From: a virus
Lineage: Duplodnaviria; Heunggongvirae; Uroviricota; Caudoviricetes
IMG/VR virus record: IMGVR_UViG_2684622620_000011
Location: 1-9,345 of that record
Length of the DNA stretch: 9,345 bases
Direction: 5' to 3' (one strand)
Part shown: piece by piece, positions 1 through 6,737 of the stretch
Numbering within the stretch: the stretch's first letter is position 1
How the letters are laid out: the number at the start of each line of letters is the position of its first letter
Notes under the pieces: model-generated
What the model saw: the letters and a program-made list of their open reading frames with translations, nothing else
What the model was told of the DNA's origin: nothing
The model's database searches: none
Position numbers and translations under genes: made by a program

Positions 1-25
1 TGAACCGCCCCGGGTTTCCTGGAGA
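1..25. repeat. Terminal inverted repeat of the left IS copy (orfB-proximal end)
   Basis: TGAACCGCCCCGGGTTTCCTGGAGA matches the reverse complement of 1286..1310 at about 22 of 25 positions; positions 1-13 and 17-25 are identical. Confidence 0.8.
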
Positions 26-42
26 GTGTTTTATCTGTGAAC

Positions 43-933
43 TCAGGCTGCCAGATCATCGTTTCCGATGGAAGCATAATAAGCTTTTTCTGCTTCTGCC
101 GGAGGAGTATGGCCCAGCCTTCCCAGCAATCGTCGATTGTTATACCAGTCCACCCACGTTAGTGTGGCCAGTTCCACTTCTGCACGGTTTTTCCAGCTCT
201 TACGGTGTATTACCTCCGCTTTGTAAAGACCATTGATGCTCTCAGCCATCGCGTTGTCATACGAGTCGCCTGTACTCCCTGTTGATGCCAGTAATCCGGC
301 TTCTTTTAGTCGCTCCGTATAGGCCAGTGACACATACTGAGAGCCTTTATCGCTGTGATGGATGGTGCCAGACGGACGACGGGCCCACAACGCCTGCTCC
401 AGCGCATCCAGCACGAATGTCGTTTCCATAGACGATGAGACCCGCCACCCCACGATGTATCCGGCAAACACATCAATGATAAACGCCACATAGACGAAGC
501 CCTGCCATGTGCTGACGTAAGTAAAATCAGCCACCCACAGCTGGTCAGGTCGTTCTGCCACGAACTGACGGTTTACGCGGTCGCCTGCGGCAACGGCTTT
601 CCGGCTGATGGTCGTACGGACCTTTTTACCCCGGAGAACACCGGCAAGTCCCATAACCGCCATGAGACGTGCCACTGTACATCTGGCCACCCTGATTCCT
701 TCCCGTAACAACTGACGCCAGACTTTACGCACACCGTACACCTGATGATTTTCATCGTATACGCGCTGTATCTCTCTCTTCAGCCAGTCGTCGTGCTGCG
801 CACGGGCACTGCGTTTATCCGGATGATGTCGCTGTTGCTGACAATGGTAATACGTTGACGGGGCAATATGCAGTTCGCTGCATACCGGTCCGACCCCGTA
901 CTGCTCACGCAGCTTATCCAGCAGTGGCATCAT
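43..933 (-). CDS. IS3-family transposase OrfB (DDE/integrase catalytic domain), 296 aa
   Basis: ATG start overlaps the orfA stop by 4 nt (ATGA). Protein shows integrase-core hallmarks (W..DFTY, HSD.GSQY, ...[10 protein letters not shown]). Identical to the ORF at 8413..9303. Confidence 0.9.
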
Positions 934-1256
934 TTTTTCCAGAGGCGGTCGAACTCCGCCTTCGCAAAATAAGCGGAAGCCTGGCGAAGGATATCGTTAC
1001 TGCGGCGCAGTTCACGATTTTCACGTTCCAGCTCTTTCAGACGCTGACGTTCAGCGCTGGTGAGCCCACCATCACCGCCCCCGGTATCCCGCTCATGCTG
1101 GCGAACCCAGACACGCAGAGTCTCCGGCGTACAGCCAATCTTTGGGGCAATGGAACAAATTGCCGCCCACTGTGAGTCATATTCATCCTGACTTTCCAGA
1201 ACCATACGAATCGCCCGCTGACGGACTTCGGGGGAAAAACGAGTATTTTTAGTCAT
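930..1256 (-). CDS. IS3-family transposase OrfA (HTH and leucine-zipper DNA-binding subunit), 108 aa
   Basis: Starts [22 protein letters not shown]... with a helix-turn-helix region and a heptad Leu repeat ([18 protein letters not shown]). Identical to the ORF at 8090..8416. Confidence 0.9.
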
Positions 1257-1285
1257 CCTGTTTACCTCTTTCTCAGGGAGTTTAG

Positions 1286-1310
1286 TCTCCAGGATTTCCG
1301 GGGCGGTTCA
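1286..1310. repeat. Terminal inverted repeat of the left IS copy (orfA-proximal end)
   Basis: Reverse complement reads TGAACCGCCCCGGAAATCCTGGAGA, an imperfect match to 1..25. Confidence 0.8.
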
Positions 1311-1619
1311 AATTGAAGTAAGTTCATTTTTAGGTGAAGGAGTGATATCTTCGCTTCCAAAGATCATATCTTGGTATTGTGCCCAATTTTGGCGAATTTC
1401 GAAATACATATCAACATCATAATCCTGCCCTCTTAGTTCATCATCTGAAGATATATTCAATGTCTTTTTGAGACCGATGATGTTAAAGATCCACTTCTTA
1501 CCACCTTTAATGAAGTATGCCCCAGTATATGCCTCTTCATCTGGTACAGCCTCATAACCTAAATTTAATGCTAATTGTATCTGTTCTGCTAATGTAAAAG
1601 GCTCTTTCCATCCACTCAT
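1308..1619 (-). CDS. Hypothetical small protein (103 aa as read), probably 3'-truncated by the IS insertion
   Basis: ATG at 1619..1617 with an AGGTAGGT Shine-Dalgarno-like sequence upstream. The in-frame stop TGA is formed by the last 3 nt of the IS terminus (1308..1310), so the native C-terminus is probably missing. AT-rich codon usage like the neighbouring 221-aa gene. No recognisable domain. Confidence 0.55.
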   Translation of the reverse strand: MSGWKEPFTLAEQIQLALNLGYEAVPDEEAYTGAYFIKGGKKWIFNIIGLKKTLNISSDDELRGQDYDVDMYFEIRQNWAQYQDMIFGSEDITPSPKNELTSI

Positions 1620-1707
1620 AGCTTATTACCTACCTGTGAACCTGTTTGCTGCATGAAAAACAATATAATAAAGCGTTATTGAAGACTATGATCCAAGTAA
1701 ATTTAAT

Positions 1708-1730
1708 CAAATACGTTTATAACGTATTTG
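1708..1730. promoter_or_regulatory. Perfect 10-bp inverted repeat with a 3-bp spacer (CAAATACGTT-TAT-AACGTATTTG), candidate operator
   Basis: Arms 1708..1717 and 1721..1730 are exact reverse complements. It lies about 90 nt upstream of the 1619 start codon, in the 320-bp intergenic region between the two AT-rich genes. Confidence 0.35.
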
Positions 1731-1939
1731 CCTAAACAACTTCCAACGTATGATCCGCTTCTCGCTCTCAGCAGACCTTTATCTGCAGGTGCTTGTCTGC
1801 TGTGTTCCAGAAGCAGATATTATTATATAACTCTTTAACCCATGTATGACAAAATATTCTTGGAGCTTATTAAAACTTCATACGTCTAAATCACCTCTTC
1901 ATTAGTGAATCAATAATTGTATAGTTAAAATGTAACACT

Positions 1940-2605
1940 TTATTTTTTATGATTAACTTGCTTTGCTAAAGAGCTATAAATCATATCAACCAAAACATAT
2001 TTTTCGCATTCCCAAGGTTCACTAATAGATGGGTTTACTAAGTCTGGCTTCCCCCCCATTAGTGTATGAACATGCGAATAAATACCTATTCTTTCTGCGA
2101 GCTGCATTATTTTTATTTGATGTTCTGGTGGGAGCATTTTGTTTTTAAACCATGTTGTAAATATATGCTTGGTAAGTTCCTTAGTACAAACAAACCATTC
2201 ACCTTGACGTCTTTCGTTGCTAAATTTTTCATGAAGATAGTTTTCTTTTTCTGAACCACCTGGTTCCAAAGCGTGTAATATTAATTGACCAAATGCACCT
2301 GTCTGCAGGTTAGACAACCTTTTTAGCACATTATTGGAACGCCCTATTTTCACATAAAGTCCCGAGTAAGGGTTATTTTTATCTGAAGAACCGGCCCAAG
2401 TATCAGGCACTTGTAAAATATAATAAATACTACTTACTTTCCCACTCGATACATTATTTGCCCAAATCTGCCATTCTTCCATCCAGCTTTTTGCATCTTC
2501 TCTCGTGTCAAAGGCATGACTTGTATAGTAAAATTCACCAGTATCCAAGAACATATCGAAAACATATTTGCCATTCTCTATAATTCTTAAGTTGTCGGCT
2601 TTCAT
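1940..2605 (-). CDS. T5orf172/MUG113-domain (GIY-YIG superfamily) protein, 221 aa, with N- and C-terminal extensions of unknown function
   Basis: Central motifs IYYIL...GLYVKIGRSNNVLKRLSNLQTG...YLHEKFSNERRQGEWF fit the T5orf172 pattern (G-x-Y-K-I-G, R-x-x-x-L, H-x-x-F...R-x-GEWF). ATG at 2605 with a GAGA-type ribosome-binding site. Gene and flanks are strongly AT-rich compared with the rest of the window. Confidence 0.75.
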   Translation of the reverse strand: MKADNLRIIENGKYVFDMFLDTGEFYYTSHAFDTREDAKSWMEEWQIWANNVSSGKVSSIYYILQVPDTWAGSSDKNNPYSGLYVKIGRSNNVLKRLSNLQTGAFGQLILHALEPGGSEKENYLHEKFSNERRQGEWFVCTKELTKHIFTTWFKNKMLPPEHQIKIMQLAERIGIYSHVHTLMGGKPDLVNPSISEPWECEKYVLVDMIYSSLAKQVNHKK

Positions 2606-2809
2606 GGAAGTTTCTCACAAAGTTACAGGAATATATAAAAACTTTACTACGCTTAGTATATATTACCACCTGATTATGTATTATTTGATTTACACAACTT
2701 ATTGCTAGTAATAACGGTTTTGATGTAATCTTCTCATCCCAAACTAACCTTCAAAATAGATTTAATCTAAATTATATCAAAATATGCTCTCAGTTAAGAT
2801 GGCTTATTT

Positions 2810-3007
2810 TTAATCAGTTAGAGGATCAACCTGATTTTCTCTAATAAGATTTCGTAACGCAGTACGAGCAGCCGCGACTTCTGTCATTCCATTTAGAACC
2901 ACGCTGGAATGCCCTCCTCTAACCCCAAAGACTGTGACCATATCCTCTTCACGGAAGTATTCTGCTTCATACTGAAGGCCATCTTTCTCTACGCGAATAT
3001 ATGACAT
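2810..3007 (-). CDS. Hypothetical small protein, 65 aa
   Basis: ATG at 3007 preceded by GAGG about 6-9 nt upstream. Composition is like the phage backbone, not the AT-rich block. No recognisable motif. Confidence 0.5.
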   Translation of the reverse strand: MSYIRVEKDGLQYEAEYFREEDMVTVFGVRGGHSSVVLNGMTEVAAARTALRNLIRENQVDPLTD

Positions 3008-3633
3008 AACAACCTCATTTTATTATCTTTTGTTTGAATGATATATCCACAAAATAATTTAAGCAATCTCGCCCAAGACGGTACGCCAAGCTTGCCTTGT
3101 AAGTATACTGTAAATATTCCGATAAAACTAATCATTCGCTTTTAGCGCATGTCCAAAAAATGGTTCAGGTATCCTATCGTGCCAATATTCGCTCCTCACT
3201 CATAGCGGCTTTCAGGCAAGTTAACTAGTCCGCTCGGTGCCATATAGAGCCATGGTTATTAACAGCAGGGAATAATTCCACACTGAAATTAAATGTCTAC
3301 CTTTTACAGTAGAAATAGTTCCTCCAGGACACTATCCATTGCCGGGCACAATCACTCGGGGTATAACGATATAAAATATGTTCATGATAGTGCAGGTTCG
3401 TATATTAAGTTCAGCAGCGAAAACATGCCTTACAGGTTTCCGGTTTTGGGAGCGTCGTTACAGGATCCTGTGCATACCGTTCCCATCTGTTGAATTAAAG
3501 GTTTCACAGCCTTTGCCGATATCACCTTTTACCTTGCCTGTGATGCGTTCAGTGCTCAGCGTTGTTTACTGTAGCTCTCGGAACTGATTACAGACCGCGT
3601 CTTAAAAACCAATCCTTACTCTAAAGGGAATTC

Positions 3634-4557
3634 ATGAGATTAAAATACTCAGTACTCTTACTCGCCATTGCCCTTACAGGCTGTGATAACAAAAAAGATG
3701 AGATCGGTTGTTCTTCGGAAATGACCCAATCAGCTCTCATGGATTTATTAAAAAAATCTGCTTATGAAGGACTCTCTGAACAGGTCGATAAATACCCTGA
3801 TGTCACTAATCAGACCAAACGAAGCACACTGGACAAGATCAAACTAGCCGTCTCTGAAATCTCCACAACATCAAGTGACACGGGCAGCACAATGAAAACT
3901 TGTGAAGGGACCGTGACGATGACTCTACCTGCGAACGAGTACATCCAGCTTTCTGATGCTTACCGAAAGAATTTTAATCGTAATCTCGATAAGCAAATGG
4001 AAAATCTGTTTTTGGAGAACAACGCAAACGCCTTTTCAAAACGTATCACCTACACCGTGCAGGCGACCGACGATCAGAAAAACGTTTTTGTAAAAACCTC
4101 TTCTGATAATCCGATATCAGTGGGCGCCGCTTTACTGACATCGCTTTCCATTATCAACCCGATCGTTGAGCAGCAGAAAATCCAGCAGGCTAAGGATGCC
4201 CAACAGAGTCAAATTGAAGCGGAACAACAGGTGCAACTCAGGGCACAGGAACAGGCCAGGTATGAGGCGGAGAAGCAAATAGAGAGGCAGGCACAACTTC
4301 AGCCGCAAAAAGCTGAAAGCCTTGATCAGTCCCGAATGGCATTTGCGAATGCTGACTCTGATTTGAATACAGTCTGGGGCAGGTTAACGCCGGCGAAGAA
4401 AAAAGAGTTGCTGCCTTCTCAGCGTCAGTGGATCAAAACTAAGGATGCTATGTGCGGTAAAGTTTCAATGCAGGGAACAGATGCTGAAGTCAAGAAAATG
4501 GTCGACTGCCAGACGCAAATGACCCTTTCAAGAATCGCTTTCCTCAGAAACCAATAA
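3634..4557 (+). CDS. Lipoprotein with a Q-rich coiled-coil middle and a C-terminal DUF1311/LprI-like domain, 307 aa
   Basis: N-terminus MRLKYSVLLLAIALTGC has a signal peptide and lipobox (LTG-C). C-terminus LLPSQRQWIKTKDAMC...VDCQTQMTLSRIAFL matches the DUF1311 signature (Q-x-x-W-x-x-x-R-D-x-x-C ... C ... T-x-x-R). AAGGGA ribosome-binding site 7-8 nt upstream of the ATG. The only long plus-strand gene in the insert. Confidence 0.8.
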   Translation: MRLKYSVLLLAIALTGCDNKKDEIGCSSEMTQSALMDLLKKSAYEGLSEQVDKYPDVTNQTKRSTLDKIKLAVSEISTTSSDTGSTMKTCEGTVTMTLPANEYIQLSDAYRKNFNRNLDKQMENLFLENNANAFSKRITYTVQATDDQKNVFVKTSSDNPISVGAALLTSLSIINPIVEQQKIQQAKDAQQSQIEAEQQVQLRAQEQARYEAEKQIERQAQLQPQKAESLDQSRMAFANADSDLNTVWGRLTPAKKKELLPSQRQWIKTKDAMCGKVSMQGTDAEVKKMVDCQTQMTLSRIAFLRNQ

Positions 4558-4571
4558 CTGAAGTTTCCTTC

Positions 4572-4605
4572 AAGCTGGCGCCTGGTGTTAACCTGGTGCC
4601 AGCTT
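4572..4605. terminator. Candidate hairpin between the convergent lipoprotein and anti-repressor genes
   Basis: AAGCTGGCGCC...GGTGCCAGCTT forms an 11-bp stem (one G.U pair) with a 12-nt loop containing GTTAAC. No clear U-tract on either strand, so the terminator call is weak. Confidence 0.3.
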
Positions 4606-4734
4606 AGTCATCAAGTACATACGTAACAGTTTTACATGGGCGGTACTTTGACAGAGTATTCGGCCTCGTGCTGGTTGTGACTAAATACCTTTTTAAGCGC
4701 AAATAGAGTATAACCGCGCCAAACATTCAACCTG

Positions 4735-5523
4735 TCAAAATGCTGAATCAGCAACGGATACAACCGACTTTTTCCCCATTACCATCAATTTATCCAGCGT
4801 CATACTTCGCAGGTTGTCGCTGTGGATCACCAGATACCCTGCCCGCTCAGCGATCTCTTTGAAAGCGTCAAACGTCATCAGATGTTCGCCTTTGGCAACA
4901 TGGCGCATCCTGGTCACTTTTCCATTTTTGATAGTGGTGATAAAAGAAAAATCTGGAATGGTTGGCTGATTTTCATCGAGTAGCAGGCAGTGGATGTATT
5001 CAATCGCCTCTAACATTTGCGTCTGTGACAGTTGTTCTATGTGAGAGACGGCGAAGCGTTGATGAATCATGGTGTAGGCATCGGGATACATCATGCCTTT
5101 CTTACCGACCAGCATATTAACGGCATCACGTAAGGGAGTACGGTCATCGGTAGTTGTACTCCGCCTCTCTGGACGCTGTCTAAAATAACAATCTTCCAGC
5201 TTTTCGAAAACTTCCCAGGCCTGTTCTGTTTCCAGCATTTTGGCATGGCGAGCTGCGCCGCGTTCTGTCCAGAGAATGAGGGATCGGGTATGTTTAGCAA
5301 CTGACTGACTATCTGTCAGTCTGTTTTTGAAGTCGCGTAATTCATTACCTTCCAGCTTAAAAAAATGCTTTCCTACGACAAATCTGGCGATGTTGCGCTT
5401 GAAGTTTTGCTGGATACCATTTACTTCCGTGCCATACAAACTGGCAAGCAATTCAGTAGTGATGACGGGAAGTTGGTTATGATGTAGCGGAGAAAGGGAT
5501 TCCGCAGATATTTGGATTGTCAT
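4735..5523 (-). CDS. Phage anti-repressor-like regulatory protein (ORF6N/KilA-type N-terminal domain), about 262 aa
   Basis: The N-terminal region (...ELLASLYGTEVNGIQQNFKRNIARFVVGKHFFKLEGNELRDF...WTERGAARHAKML...) resembles ORF6N-type anti-repressor domains. Start chosen at ATG 5523 (MTIQ...), which has GTGAGG 8 nt upstream. The ORF track extends the frame to 5571, but that start is a TTG; another ATG at 5553 has poorer spacing. Confidence 0.65.
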   Translation of the reverse strand: MTIQISAESLSPLHHNQLPVITTELLASLYGTEVNGIQQNFKRNIARFVVGKHFFKLEGNELRDFKNRLTDSQSVAKHTRSLILWTERGAARHAKMLETEQAWEVFEKLEDCYFRQRPERRSTTTDDRTPLRDAVNMLVGKKGMMYPDAYTMIHQRFAVSHIEQLSQTQMLEAIEYIHCLLLDENQPTIPDFSFITTIKNGKVTRMRHVAKGEHLMTFDAFKEIAERAGYLVIHSDNLRSMTLDKLMVMGKKSVVSVADSAF

Positions 5524-5683
5524 CGCAGTGGCCTCACTTAGTGTTTTTTTCATCACCACCAGCGACGCCAATCATCTGGTGGTGAACTGTGCAGGGTTGG
5601 CGTAACCGGCTAAGTGAACCCGGCGCTTCCGCAGAAGCCCCCACACAGCCCACCATAATGCGAATGTGGCCGTGCCTAACACA

Positions 5684-5707
5684 TAAAAAAACCGCTAACG
5701 CGGCTAT
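5684..5707 (-). terminator. Candidate rho-independent terminator (minus strand) downstream of the small-gene operon
   Basis: Minus strand reads AGCCGCGTTAGCGG followed by TTTTTTT. The stem is short (4 G-C pairs plus possible G.U/A-U) with a 4-nt loop and a T7 tract, about 100 nt after the stop of the 5796..6017 ORF. Confidence 0.3.
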
Positions 5708-5795
5708 GCGTCACTTAGATATCCGGGACGCCAATCCCGGCAACCGATTTTGCGGCTGCGCGGAAACTATAGCCCCGGGCTTTTTCTAAGTCAAT

Positions 5796-6017
5796 TCAAT
5801 CAACTTCAAACCTCCGGTGTTCACATTCCATACACTCAACGGGAACATCATCGCGATGCAAGTCCACATATCCGACCCGCTTATACAACTCAATAATGTC
5901 CGGTAACGTGACCAGATGTTTTTCCGGTTCCAACACCTCAGCCCTGGTTACTTTGTAATCTGAAATATAGAGCACTATCCGCCCGTTCCGTGGTAACTCC
6001 AGTTTATCGCCAAACAT
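5796..6017 (-). CDS. Hypothetical small phage protein, 73 aa
   Basis: ATG at 6017 with GGAGGGAAAGGA Shine-Dalgarno sequence immediately upstream. Last gene of the minus-strand operon. No recognisable domain; C-terminus has a CxxC (CMEC) pair. Confidence 0.6.
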   Translation of the reverse strand: MFGDKLELPRNGRIVLYISDYKVTRAEVLEPEKHLVTLPDIIELYKRVGYVDLHRDDVPVECMECEHRRFEVD

Positions 6018-6091
6018 GTCCTTTCCCTCCGGGAAACCAATGATATTGACGATATTACACCCACAAAGATTCGTTTTACGTCACTCCGCAA

Positions 6092-6208
6092 TCACCATAC
6101 ATACGTACCAATCCGTACATTCCCACCACAAAAATGGCATTCGGCGGGCACTGGTAATGGATTTTTAACGCGTGCTATTGCCTTGCGACGTATTTTCAAT
6201 TCACTCAT
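6092..6208 (-). CDS. Possible unannotated small ORF, 38 aa (MSELKIRRKAIARVKNPLPVPAECHFCGGNVRIGTYVW)
   Basis: ATG at 6208..6206 overlaps the stop of the upstream ORF (ATGA) and is preceded by GGGAGG 5 nt upstream. Below the 60-aa cutoff of the ORF track. Contains one CxxC pair. Translated by hand. Confidence 0.35.
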   Translation of the reverse strand: MSELKIRRKAIARVKNPLPVPAECHFCGGNVRIGTYVW

Positions 6209-6429
6209 ACAGCCTCCCTGCTCTCAAACGGGCGAATATTGGTTGGTTCTCCACACGGAATGGCCCAACCCAGCCAGGTAAATATTTTCAGATCACACAT
6301 CGCGTCATACCGTTCGCCCGGATTCACATCCACCATGCTGCAGGCAATTTCATATTGTTCACCATTATCAGTCAGTGCGATCTGGTCATTAATAAACCGG
6401 GGCACAAATGCAAGAAAAAGCTCTTTCAT
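6205..6429 (-). CDS. Hypothetical small phage protein, 74 aa
   Basis: ATG at 6429 with GGAGGA Shine-Dalgarno sequence; ATGA overlap with the upstream gene, consistent with translational coupling. Confidence 0.6.
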   Translation of the reverse strand: MKELFLAFVPRFINDQIALTDNGEQYEIACSMVDVNPGERYDAMCDLKIFTWLGWAIPCGEPTNIRPFESREAV

Positions 6430-6737
6430 GAAATCCTCCGCTCAAAATAAACAAACTGATTCACCGCTCCGATCGGCATTTCGAGTTTTTCCGCGATATC
6501 CTGGCGATTAATACCCGACTGATGTAATTCCCTTGCCAGCTCGACATCTTCCTGTAGGTATTTCGCTGACTGGTGATAATTACCCCGCAGATACATACAG
6601 ATTTTCAGCTCGCGCGCTTTTGTGCGTACCGACGCAGCGGTTCTGCCAATAAGCTGCCCTATACTTTCAACTGTCATGCTGCCTGCACATTGTTTGATGA
6701 TTACGACTTCCGCACGCACCCACCGTTTGTATTTCAT
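6426..6737 (-). CDS. Hypothetical phage protein, 103 aa, possibly DNA-binding (two helix-turn-helix-like segments)
   Basis: ATG at 6737 with GGAG upstream; ATGA overlap with the upstream gene. Segments SIGQLIGRTAASVRTKAREL and NRQDIAEKLEMPIGAVNQFV look HTH-like by eye only. Confidence 0.55.
   Translation of the reverse strand: MKYKRWVRAEVVIIKQCAGSMTVESIGQLIGRTAASVRTKARELKICMYLRGNYHQSAKYLQEDVELARELHQSGINRQDIAEKLEMPIGAVNQFVYFERRIS

Follow-up and report, generated by a model that had tools for sequence, protein, structure and literature searches.

The prophage segment and its AT-rich cargo block

The DNA analysed here, referred to as the window, is the 9345-base stretch of virus record IMGVR_UViG_2684622620_000011, and the gene in question is a stand-alone gene on its minus strand (1940..2605) encoding a T5orf172/MUG113 nuclease of the GIY-YIG superfamily with 221 amino acids (aa). 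The window consists of a 6725-bp piece of a lambdoid Escherichia coli prophage lying between two copies of the insertion sequence (IS) IS1203. Read 5' to 3' on the minus strand, this piece carries a truncated dnaB, several small phage genes and a C4-antisense-RNA/ORF6N antirepressor module. Then, past an LprI-family lipoprotein gene on the opposite strand, come p65 (2810-3007, minus strand; 65 aa, with a strong GAGG ribosome-binding site), the nuclease gene, and a 103-codon open reading frame (ORF; 1308..1619, minus strand) that enters the left IS and is the truncated remnant of a stand-alone gene for a 134-aa protein.

An original prediction, made from the letters of the window and a list of its ORFs, had described an AT-rich block next to the left IS, separately acquired as cargo and ending at 2809. 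The G+C content was 35.1% in window 1311-3103, compared with 47.6% in the remaining prophage DNA (3104-8039) and 54% in the IS, a gap between block and backbone of about 9 standard errors (1.8 kb against 4.9 kb). This confirmed the contrast with the phage backbone and supported a separate acquisition of the block. The right limit at 2809 was not confirmed, as the low G+C content continued through p65 to about 3103.

The limits of the cargo were defined by comparing, with blastn, the intact prophage of E. coli RM10042 (locus L001) with the sister prophage of E. coli E24377A. The two prophages encode identical terminase, gpW, holin, DUF1364 and other proteins. Conservation of the left flank extended as far as L001 9918, and that of the right flank began at L001 13923 (window 3233), so that the variable cargo runs from the left IS through 3232. 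The conserved right flank starts with the upstream region of the LprI-family gene (3233..3633), where homology between L001 and E24377A resumes. A megablast comparison of the block with phage isolates gave no match.

At the DNA level, blastn resolved the block into two homology modules. Module A, which comprises the 134-aa gene and a conserved stretch of about 150 bp upstream of it (window ...1311-1767), is common to loci of Proteus, Citrobacter and Serratia at 80-84% identity. Module B, consisting of p65 and the nuclease gene (window 1754-3103), is shared at 84-86% identity with Citrobacter and Enterobacter loci and one viral contig, and in Enterobacter cloacae the nuclease ORF alone is shared. 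The two modules meet at about 1754-1767. As a mosaic, the AT-rich block combines three accessory genes ("morons") that move independently of one another, and these occupy a variable cargo slot of the lambdoid prophage between its nin/Q side and its LprI-antirepressor-replication side.

The 221-aa protein is a compact predicted nuclease with a central GIY-YIG core

Pfam profiles MUG113 (6.4e-10, 39.9 bits; gathering cutoff 22.3) and T5orf172 (4.4e-7, 30.8 bits; gathering cutoff 20) both matched residues 74-152 of the 221-aa protein. With both matches above the gathering thresholds, the predicted assignment to T5orf172/GIY-YIG is virtually certain. The unassigned flanks expected on either side (about 60 N-terminal and 70 C-terminal residues) were also recovered, with about 73 and 69 residues left uncovered by Pfam. 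An AlphaFold model built from a 28-sequence alignment formed a single body (pLDDT 89.6, pTM 0.85) with the alpha/beta fold of GIY-YIG proteins.

The protein begins with an acidic (pI 4.6) YegP/DUF1508-like N-domain (residues 1-51, nt 2605-2453, minus strand), followed by the central T5orf172 core (residues 59-139, nt 2431-2189) and a helical C-terminal region (residues 142-221, nt 2182-1943). Within the C-terminal part, which is basic (pI 9.1), residues 142-183 form two long helices, and these are followed by a conserved PDxVNPS...W...D tail. No membrane segment was found in the nuclease (maximum Kyte-Doolittle 19-residue score 0.49), nor any zinc-finger cysteine pattern, its two Cys (140 and 200) both being non-conserved.

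The residues invariant among the 28 homologues, down to 39% identity, include Y61, Y62, K86, G88, R96, E121, H125, R132, R133 and E136. We assigned Y61/Y62, K86-I-G88, R96, E121, H125 and E136, the last of which sits in a GEWF motif, to the catalytic core. By GIY-YIG topology, and together with the study of Odn cited below, R96 and E121 presumably correspond to R27 and E75 of I-TevI. In an alignment with Odn of phage ICP1, the KIGRS..KR motifs superposed and Odn E180 fell on E121. The E180A substitution in Odn abolishes cleavage in vivo and in vitro (PMC8263062). Because the invariant residues are kept and E121 aligns with Odn E180, the catalytic apparatus looks intact, and we infer from these residues that the protein is an active nuclease. 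The gene in the window is itself intact and shows 100% identity to its counterparts in most of the 18 complete E. coli genomes with the block.

For the N-domain, paired DUF1508 domains have been proposed to act as a Whirly-like single-strand-binding nucleic-acid sensor in Menshen NsnA (PMC12065111). By analogy, this link offers a lead, and not a result, for what the N-domain of the nuclease may do.

The nuclease family is rare, patchily distributed and mobile as a single gene

Relatives of the nuclease were gathered from one genome per species, viral contigs and metagenomes. Among 1.84 billion proteins the full-length architecture is rare (12 cluster representatives below 1e-30), and 29,613 of the representatives share just the T5orf172 core. 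At 50% identity the family forms about a dozen clusters spanning five phyla, patchily spread over Gammaproteobacteria, cyanobacteria, Chloroflexi, Planctomycetes and Acidobacteria. PHROG 8130, which has no assigned function, matches the nuclease end to end, and no full-length relative was found in 50,697 phage isolate genomes.

In Vibrio vulnificus (L048 1-11395), the nuclease is a single-gene cassette in a superintegron with at least 15 attC-type repeats. Two of these repeats (about 125 nt; 6909-7035 and 7707-7833) enclose just the nuclease ORF, and the array also holds BrnT and ParE toxin cassettes and an IS. The annotated start of the V. vulnificus protein overlaps an attC repeat and is probably over-extended. 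The spurious N-terminal extensions of several Vibrio and Pseudoalteromonas homologues likewise look like read-through of attC-type repeats. These results demonstrated that the nuclease is a self-contained, single-gene mobile unit.

The original prediction also expected the family to recur in defence islands, and several loci confirmed this, as a qualitative, locus-by-locus observation. In E. cloacae (L040), the nuclease lies in a small chromosomal islet, convergent with PARIS AriA/AriB. A Citrobacter or viral contig (L004/L027) carries Shango SngA/B/C followed by p65 and the nuclease, with a Mokosh-like helicase downstream. In a Vibrio locus (L010), the nuclease is directly upstream of an Eco29kI-type restriction-modification pair, and in Trichormus (L013) it lies between a putative PIN toxin pair, as read from the ORFs, and an AAA_15/21 ATPase gene pair. 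A CP4-57-like island holds the nuclease together with a second T5orf172 gene, a GTPase, WYL and Mrr, and one further relative flanks an integrated filamentous phage near smpB.

Two side observations concern related genes. In an Enterobacter island, a different T5orf172 protein of 268 aa, whose domain is C-terminal, forms a pair with a 302-aa protein of unknown kind (L047 5176-6892, minus strand). The pair is 2 kb away from the p65-nuclease module, and the island also has a GTPase, WYL, an antirestriction gene, RadC, CbtA/CbeA and Mrr. In another protein of 259 aa (P0115), the C-terminus of a DDE transposase is fused to the last 63 residues of a member of the nuclease family, which suggests another independent disruption of this family by an IS.

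The neighbouring 134-aa gene is an unrelated moron inactivated by IS1203

The last base of the left IS is 1310, and the TGA stop of the 103-codon ORF (1310-1308) lies entirely within the IS1203 terminal repeat TGAACCGCCCCGG, in agreement with the predicted truncation of this gene by the IS. The uninterrupted version, present in 18 complete E. coli genomes, encodes 134 aa (L001 11905-12309). The 31 residues lost by truncation carry the most conserved motif of the family, EMVYLSDGMWLDxNGRIVQR. Because this invariant C-terminal motif is missing, the sequence of the remnant indicates that it is very probably non-functional. As had been predicted, the 103-aa ORF has no recognisable domain, with no match in Pfam, PADLOC, PHROG or NCBIfam. 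The full 134-aa protein gave no PADLOC match either, and its AlphaFold model (pLDDT 49) was too poor for a fold search.

Upstream of the 134-aa gene, a non-coding 5' region (1620..1767, minus strand) is conserved with module A, as seen with blastn and in an alignment to the corresponding regions of Proteus, Citrobacter and Serratia. A hairpin at 1708-1730, flagged by a scan as terminator-like, was dropped as it is not conserved in these three genera. Outside Escherichia, homologues of the 134-aa protein are 67-89% identical. The Proteus homologue lies at a prophage end adjoining an ApeA-HEPN gene, that of Citrobacter at the ogr end of a P2-like prophage, and that of Serratia adjoins an SMC-like ATPase. 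No nuclease was found near any of them.

The original prediction had read the two genes as a nuclease effector with a small partner, laid out like a toxin-immunity pair. They are indeed adjacent, on the same strand and both AT-rich, and they occur together in 18 of the 18 E. coli genomes with the block. All these E. coli copies, however, come from the same prophage lineage, and the adjacency of the two genes therefore has the weight of only one evolutionary event. A gap of 320 bp separates the genes, the small gene brings its own conserved upstream region, and the two lie in different DNA homology modules. In a tblastn search of the 134-aa protein against 39 loci, 37 of which contain a nuclease relative or at least the T5orf172 core, only four Escherichia loci were found; the gene was absent from every non-Escherichia locus encoding a nuclease relative. 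As signs against the pairing, the original prediction had named the lack of a co-occurring partner, which is what we observed, and confinement of the homologues to fixed structural or replication contexts, which we did not observe.

Because the modules are separate at the DNA level and the genes occur apart elsewhere, the adjacency in E. coli is one historical juxtaposition in one prophage lineage. The 134-aa gene is an unrelated moron, inactivated by IS1203, and it is very likely that the nuclease acts without the 134-aa protein.

p65 travels with the nuclease among close relatives and with other defence genes

p65, which moves with the nuclease in Enterobacterales as module B, was found in Enterobacterales only, and it accompanies the nuclease solely in close enterobacterial relatives (90% identity). 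It was missing beside the E. cloacae nuclease relatives (76% identity) and beside all relatives at or below 57% identity. In integrase/AlpA/YfjJ-type islands (L060-L064), p65 directly follows Lamassu LmuA-LmuC-LmuB operons, and the cargo after it varies, being an unknown 441-aa protein, an FRG-domain protein (PADLOC candidate PDC-S15) or the nuclease. In integrase/AlpA/YfjJ elements it was also seen preceding FRG/PDC-S15 and Lamassu-like genes. A role of p65 as a dedicated partner or antitoxin of the nuclease was rejected, in view of its absence from the more distant relatives and its presence without the nuclease beside Lamassu and FRG/PDC-S15 genes. No PADLOC match or domain was detected in p65, and it showed no profile similarity to the nuclease N-domain. 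These results indicated that p65, a small ORF often met in defence islands, is not an obligate partner. It might act as a small regulator or mark the boundary of a hotspot.

The intergenic region between p65 and the nuclease gene (2606..2809, minus strand; about 28% G+C) is the presumed promoter region of the nuclease and is about 85% conserved wherever the two genes co-occur. A promoter scan found a consensus-like TTGATA-16-TATTTT at 2780-2753, which was no better than chance, as hits were no commoner than in shuffled sequence.

The nuclease and PD-T4-3 are alternative cargo of one prophage slot

In E. coli, the nuclease gene lies between the replication and late-regulation modules of the prophage. 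In 18 genomes, the slot holds about 4.0 kb of cargo, made up of a 92-aa ORF, an ImmA/IrrE peptidase with a putative membrane protein, the 134-aa gene, the nuclease and p65. Six of the 24 prophages of the lineage carry about 7.1 kb of alternative cargo instead; three of these genomes were inspected (E24377A, L26 and LD91-1), and the other three share a flank-only match. One protein of the alternative cargo matches the PADLOC model of PD-T4-3 over its whole length (E 5.7e-138). PD-T4-3 was found by functional selection in E. coli (Vassallo 2022, PMC9519451) and was later characterised under the name CMoRE. This GIY-YIG enzyme is a single-component type IV restriction endonuclease that acts specifically on DNA with 5-hydroxymethylcytosine (5hmC) or glucosyl-5hmC (Liu 2026, PMC12923530). 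The 221-aa nuclease and PD-T4-3 are alternative cargo of one slot.

Other genes of the slot were noted on both alleles. In E24377A (L069 11212-17974) and in L070/L071, PD-T4-3/CMoRE is immediately followed by a 411-aa HNH_2 protein. This allele also encodes four flanking hypothetical proteins (259, 220, 459 and 186 aa) that have no PADLOC match and are candidate defence genes. In the intact prophages with the nuclease, the region beyond the position of the left IS (L001 10692-11795, plus strand) encodes an ImmA/IrrE metallopeptidase (PADLOC capP-like, E 2.4e-25). The next gene encodes a 201-aa protein that has no known domain and whose C-terminus is hydrophobic, the two possibly forming a protease-controlled module. 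This module was lost or displaced from the window by the IS.

The nuclease differs from the known GIY-YIG systems

The original prediction stated that the protein matches no named defence system, and this proved correct: neither NCBIfam nor a PDB sequence search placed it in one, and PADLOC gave nothing beyond a marginal hit to PDC-S57. Nothing else in PADLOC-DB v2 matched the T5orf172 core. The hit (E 0.0037, residues 83-157) covers the core only, and the two are not the same family.

The closest parallel in kind is PD-T4-3/CMoRE, which is likewise one gene for a protein of 220-270 aa combining a GIY-YIG nuclease with accessory domains, in the same variable slot of the same prophage lineage. 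This is a likeness of kind and not membership, since there is no family-level homology (BLASTP against the E24377A PD-T4-3 gave E = 1, and the nuclease had no PADLOC PD-T4-3 match). The nuclease motif reads "IYYIL ... VKIGRS" and not GIYxY. CMoRE has a C-terminal 5hmC-sensing domain, whereas the 221-aa protein has a central core, a YegP-like N-domain and a helical C-terminus.

ICP1 Odn (gp88) belongs to the T5orf172 subfamily as well and shares the KIGRS..KR motif, the catalytic Glu (E180, equivalent to E121) and a similar length (226 against 221 aa). Odn is reported to be without the His/Tyr of the first helix (PMC8263062). In Odn and in the homing endonucleases, the nuclease occupies one end of the protein and is attached to a DNA-binding domain that is separable from it (RepA_N or zinc fingers), and the gene belongs to a lytic phage. 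In the 221-aa protein, by contrast, the core is central, no zinc finger or RepA_N was detected, and the homes are prophages, islands and integrons. The DNA-binding modules DUF723 and DUF4397 of homing endonucleases were not found in it with Pfam, which has no model for CapR.

SNIPE is a single-protein anti-phage GIY-YIG nuclease in which E414A abolishes defence (bioRxiv 10.1101/2025.11.03.685801). It resembles the 221-aa protein in being a single protein whose GIY-YIG nuclease domain has an essential Glu. It differs in having an N-terminal transmembrane helix and DUF4041, neither of which was seen in the 221-aa protein by hydropathy (maximum 0.49) or Pfam. Single-gene GIY-YIG defence nucleases (CMoRE, SNIPE) and T5orf172 conflict effectors are thus already known, and the architecture of this nuclease matches none of them.

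A possible one-gene defence and its alternatives

On balance, we lean towards a role of the 221-aa protein in defence against phages or other mobile elements. It would be made from the prophage as a one-gene, single-polypeptide defence, in which the catalytic core is wrapped by the YegP/DUF1508-like N-domain and the basic helical C-terminus into one compact globule. The nuclease would act on incoming DNA, from superinfecting phages or from other invaders, by cutting it, and the N- and C-terminal domains would supply target recognition or activation, in a way analogous to, and not homologous with, the modification-sensing domain of CMoRE. Host DNA could be spared by dependence on modification, as in CMoRE, or by dependence on structure, such as single-stranded DNA or replication intermediates. 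From domain content, conserved residues and genomic context, we infer that the protein cleaves DNA, acts against phages and discriminates its targets in the way described.

Several points weigh against this interpretation. Defence is suggested here by neighbourhood, which does not establish function, and genes for anti-defence, toxins and selfish nucleases occur in hotspots too. At several loci, among them L005, L006 and L051, the homologues had no recognisable defence neighbours. A T5orf172 domain alone does not imply host defence, because the characterised T5orf172 proteins include homing endonucleases, the anti-satellite Odn and the transcriptional repressor CapR. Among the profile models, PADLOC gave just the marginal core-only PDC-S57, NCBIfam gave nothing, and PHROG 8130 has no assigned function. 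Finally, the results give no account of how host DNA would escape a nuclease that is constitutively encoded.

A narrower form of the defence interpretation, which we put forward tentatively and consider rather doubtful, is that the nuclease founds an unnamed single-gene defence family. Its globule of T5orf172 core and YegP/DUF1508-like domain would use a recognition route unlike those of CMoRE (base modification) and SNIPE (injection site). As a candidate route, a Whirly-like YegP dimer might bind single-stranded or replication-intermediate DNA.

The nuclease might instead serve the prophage, as an Odn-like weapon against satellites or rival prophages, as a lytic-cycle nuclease, or as a CapR-like, catalytically domesticated regulator. 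Odn and CapR are T5orf172 proteins used in phage-satellite conflict and as repressors, the E. coli gene sits between the replication and late-regulation modules, and one relative adjoins the integrated filamentous phage mentioned above. However, the family is mostly found outside prophages, in integron cassettes, the islet by PARIS, cyanobacterial chromosomes and CP4-57-like islands, and its absence from sequenced phage isolates does not fit a benefit to the phage. That the catalytic residues are invariant speaks against a derivative that only binds DNA. An anti-satellite role would moreover overlap with the defence interpretation, both describing nucleases in mobile-element conflict. A function that serves the prophage rather than the host appears unlikely to us.

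It is also improbable that the gene is a free-standing homing or otherwise selfish T5orf172 nuclease that spreads by cutting alleles without it. Homing endonucleases of the T5orf172 class abound in ICP1-like, T5-like and other phages (PMC10448857), the catalytic residues of the nuclease are conserved, and its presence is polymorphic among related prophages. Nevertheless, the nuclease is without the zinc-finger modules (CapR, DUF723, DUF4397) present in 87% of T5orf172 homing endonucleases, and its compact globule (pTM 0.85) differs from their linker-joined "beads on a string" (PMC10448857). Homing would also sit poorly with the lack of full-length relatives among the phage isolate genomes. The homes of the nuclease are a multi-gene variable slot, integron cassettes, integrative islands and chromosomal islets, and not sites in or beside conserved essential genes, and the alternative alleles contain other cargo rather than empty target sites.

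The cassette initially proposed, a defence, abortive-infection or toxin-immunity pair of the 221-aa nuclease and the small ORF that was functional until the IS broke it, has next to no likelihood, as it is essentially refuted by the tblastn result, the separate modules, the independent distribution of the two genes and the existence of the nuclease as a single-gene integron cassette.

Single-protein nucleases that separate phage from host DNA are compact models of self/non-self discrimination and potential tools, and CMoRE has been proposed for 5hmC mapping. This family is small, compact, confidently modelled and delimited as a one-gene unit by the integron cassette. In addition, a hotspot with known flanks, one allele of which holds a validated system, makes its other cargo genes candidates, namely the 134-aa gene, p65, the ImmA/IrrE and membrane-protein pair, and the HNH and hypothetical genes of the PD-T4-3 allele. 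If the nuclease has no defence activity, it would be an ordinary uncharacterised GIY-YIG accessory gene.

IS1203 copies and other features of the prophage segment

The two IS1203 copies, at 1-1310 (minus strand) and 8036-9345 (plus strand), are mutually 100% identical and inverted, forming a perfect 1310-nt inverted repeat. The left copy is 100% identical to annotated IS1203 of the IS3 family (NCBIfam transpos_IS3, 2.9e-94). Each copy carries orfA/orfB and an ALIL frameshift pseudoknot (Rfam ALIL, 121.5 bits), located in the left copy at 930-1256, 43-933 and 859-975, respectively. The exact IS junction was found in 0 of 5,426 complete E. coli genomes. The paired inverted copies around the 6.7-kb segment resemble a composite transposon, and homologous recombination between them could flip the enclosed segment.

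The right IS truncates the prophage dnaB (7421-8035, minus strand), which matches DnaB model positions of about 266-419 only. Because just the C-terminal 204 residues of this replicative helicase are left, the prophage is probably replication-defective.

Further along the segment, the ORF6N/Ant-type antirepressor gene (4735-5571, minus strand; PHROG 4792) is directly preceded at 5575-5772 (minus strand) by a match to the Rfam C4 antisense RNA (74.5 bits). The same stretch also contains a C4 a1/b1 target (52.9 bits) and an overlapping isrK match (80.4 bits). C4 RNA and antirepressor together make up a P1/P7 immI-like antisense-controlled module within a lambdoid prophage. The LprI-family gene (3634-4557, plus strand; 307 aa), with a C-terminal Pfam LprI match (5.4e-8), is the conserved right-flank gene of the hotspot and the sole plus-strand gene in the segment. 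Its product has an apparent lipoprotein signal (…LAIALTGC) and a Gln/Glu-rich coiled region. The 78-aa HolE-like protein encoded at 6734-6970 (minus strand) matches PHROG 1105 (DNA polymerase III theta subunit, 1.1e-27), with a weak Pfam match, and is a phage-borne theta homologue.

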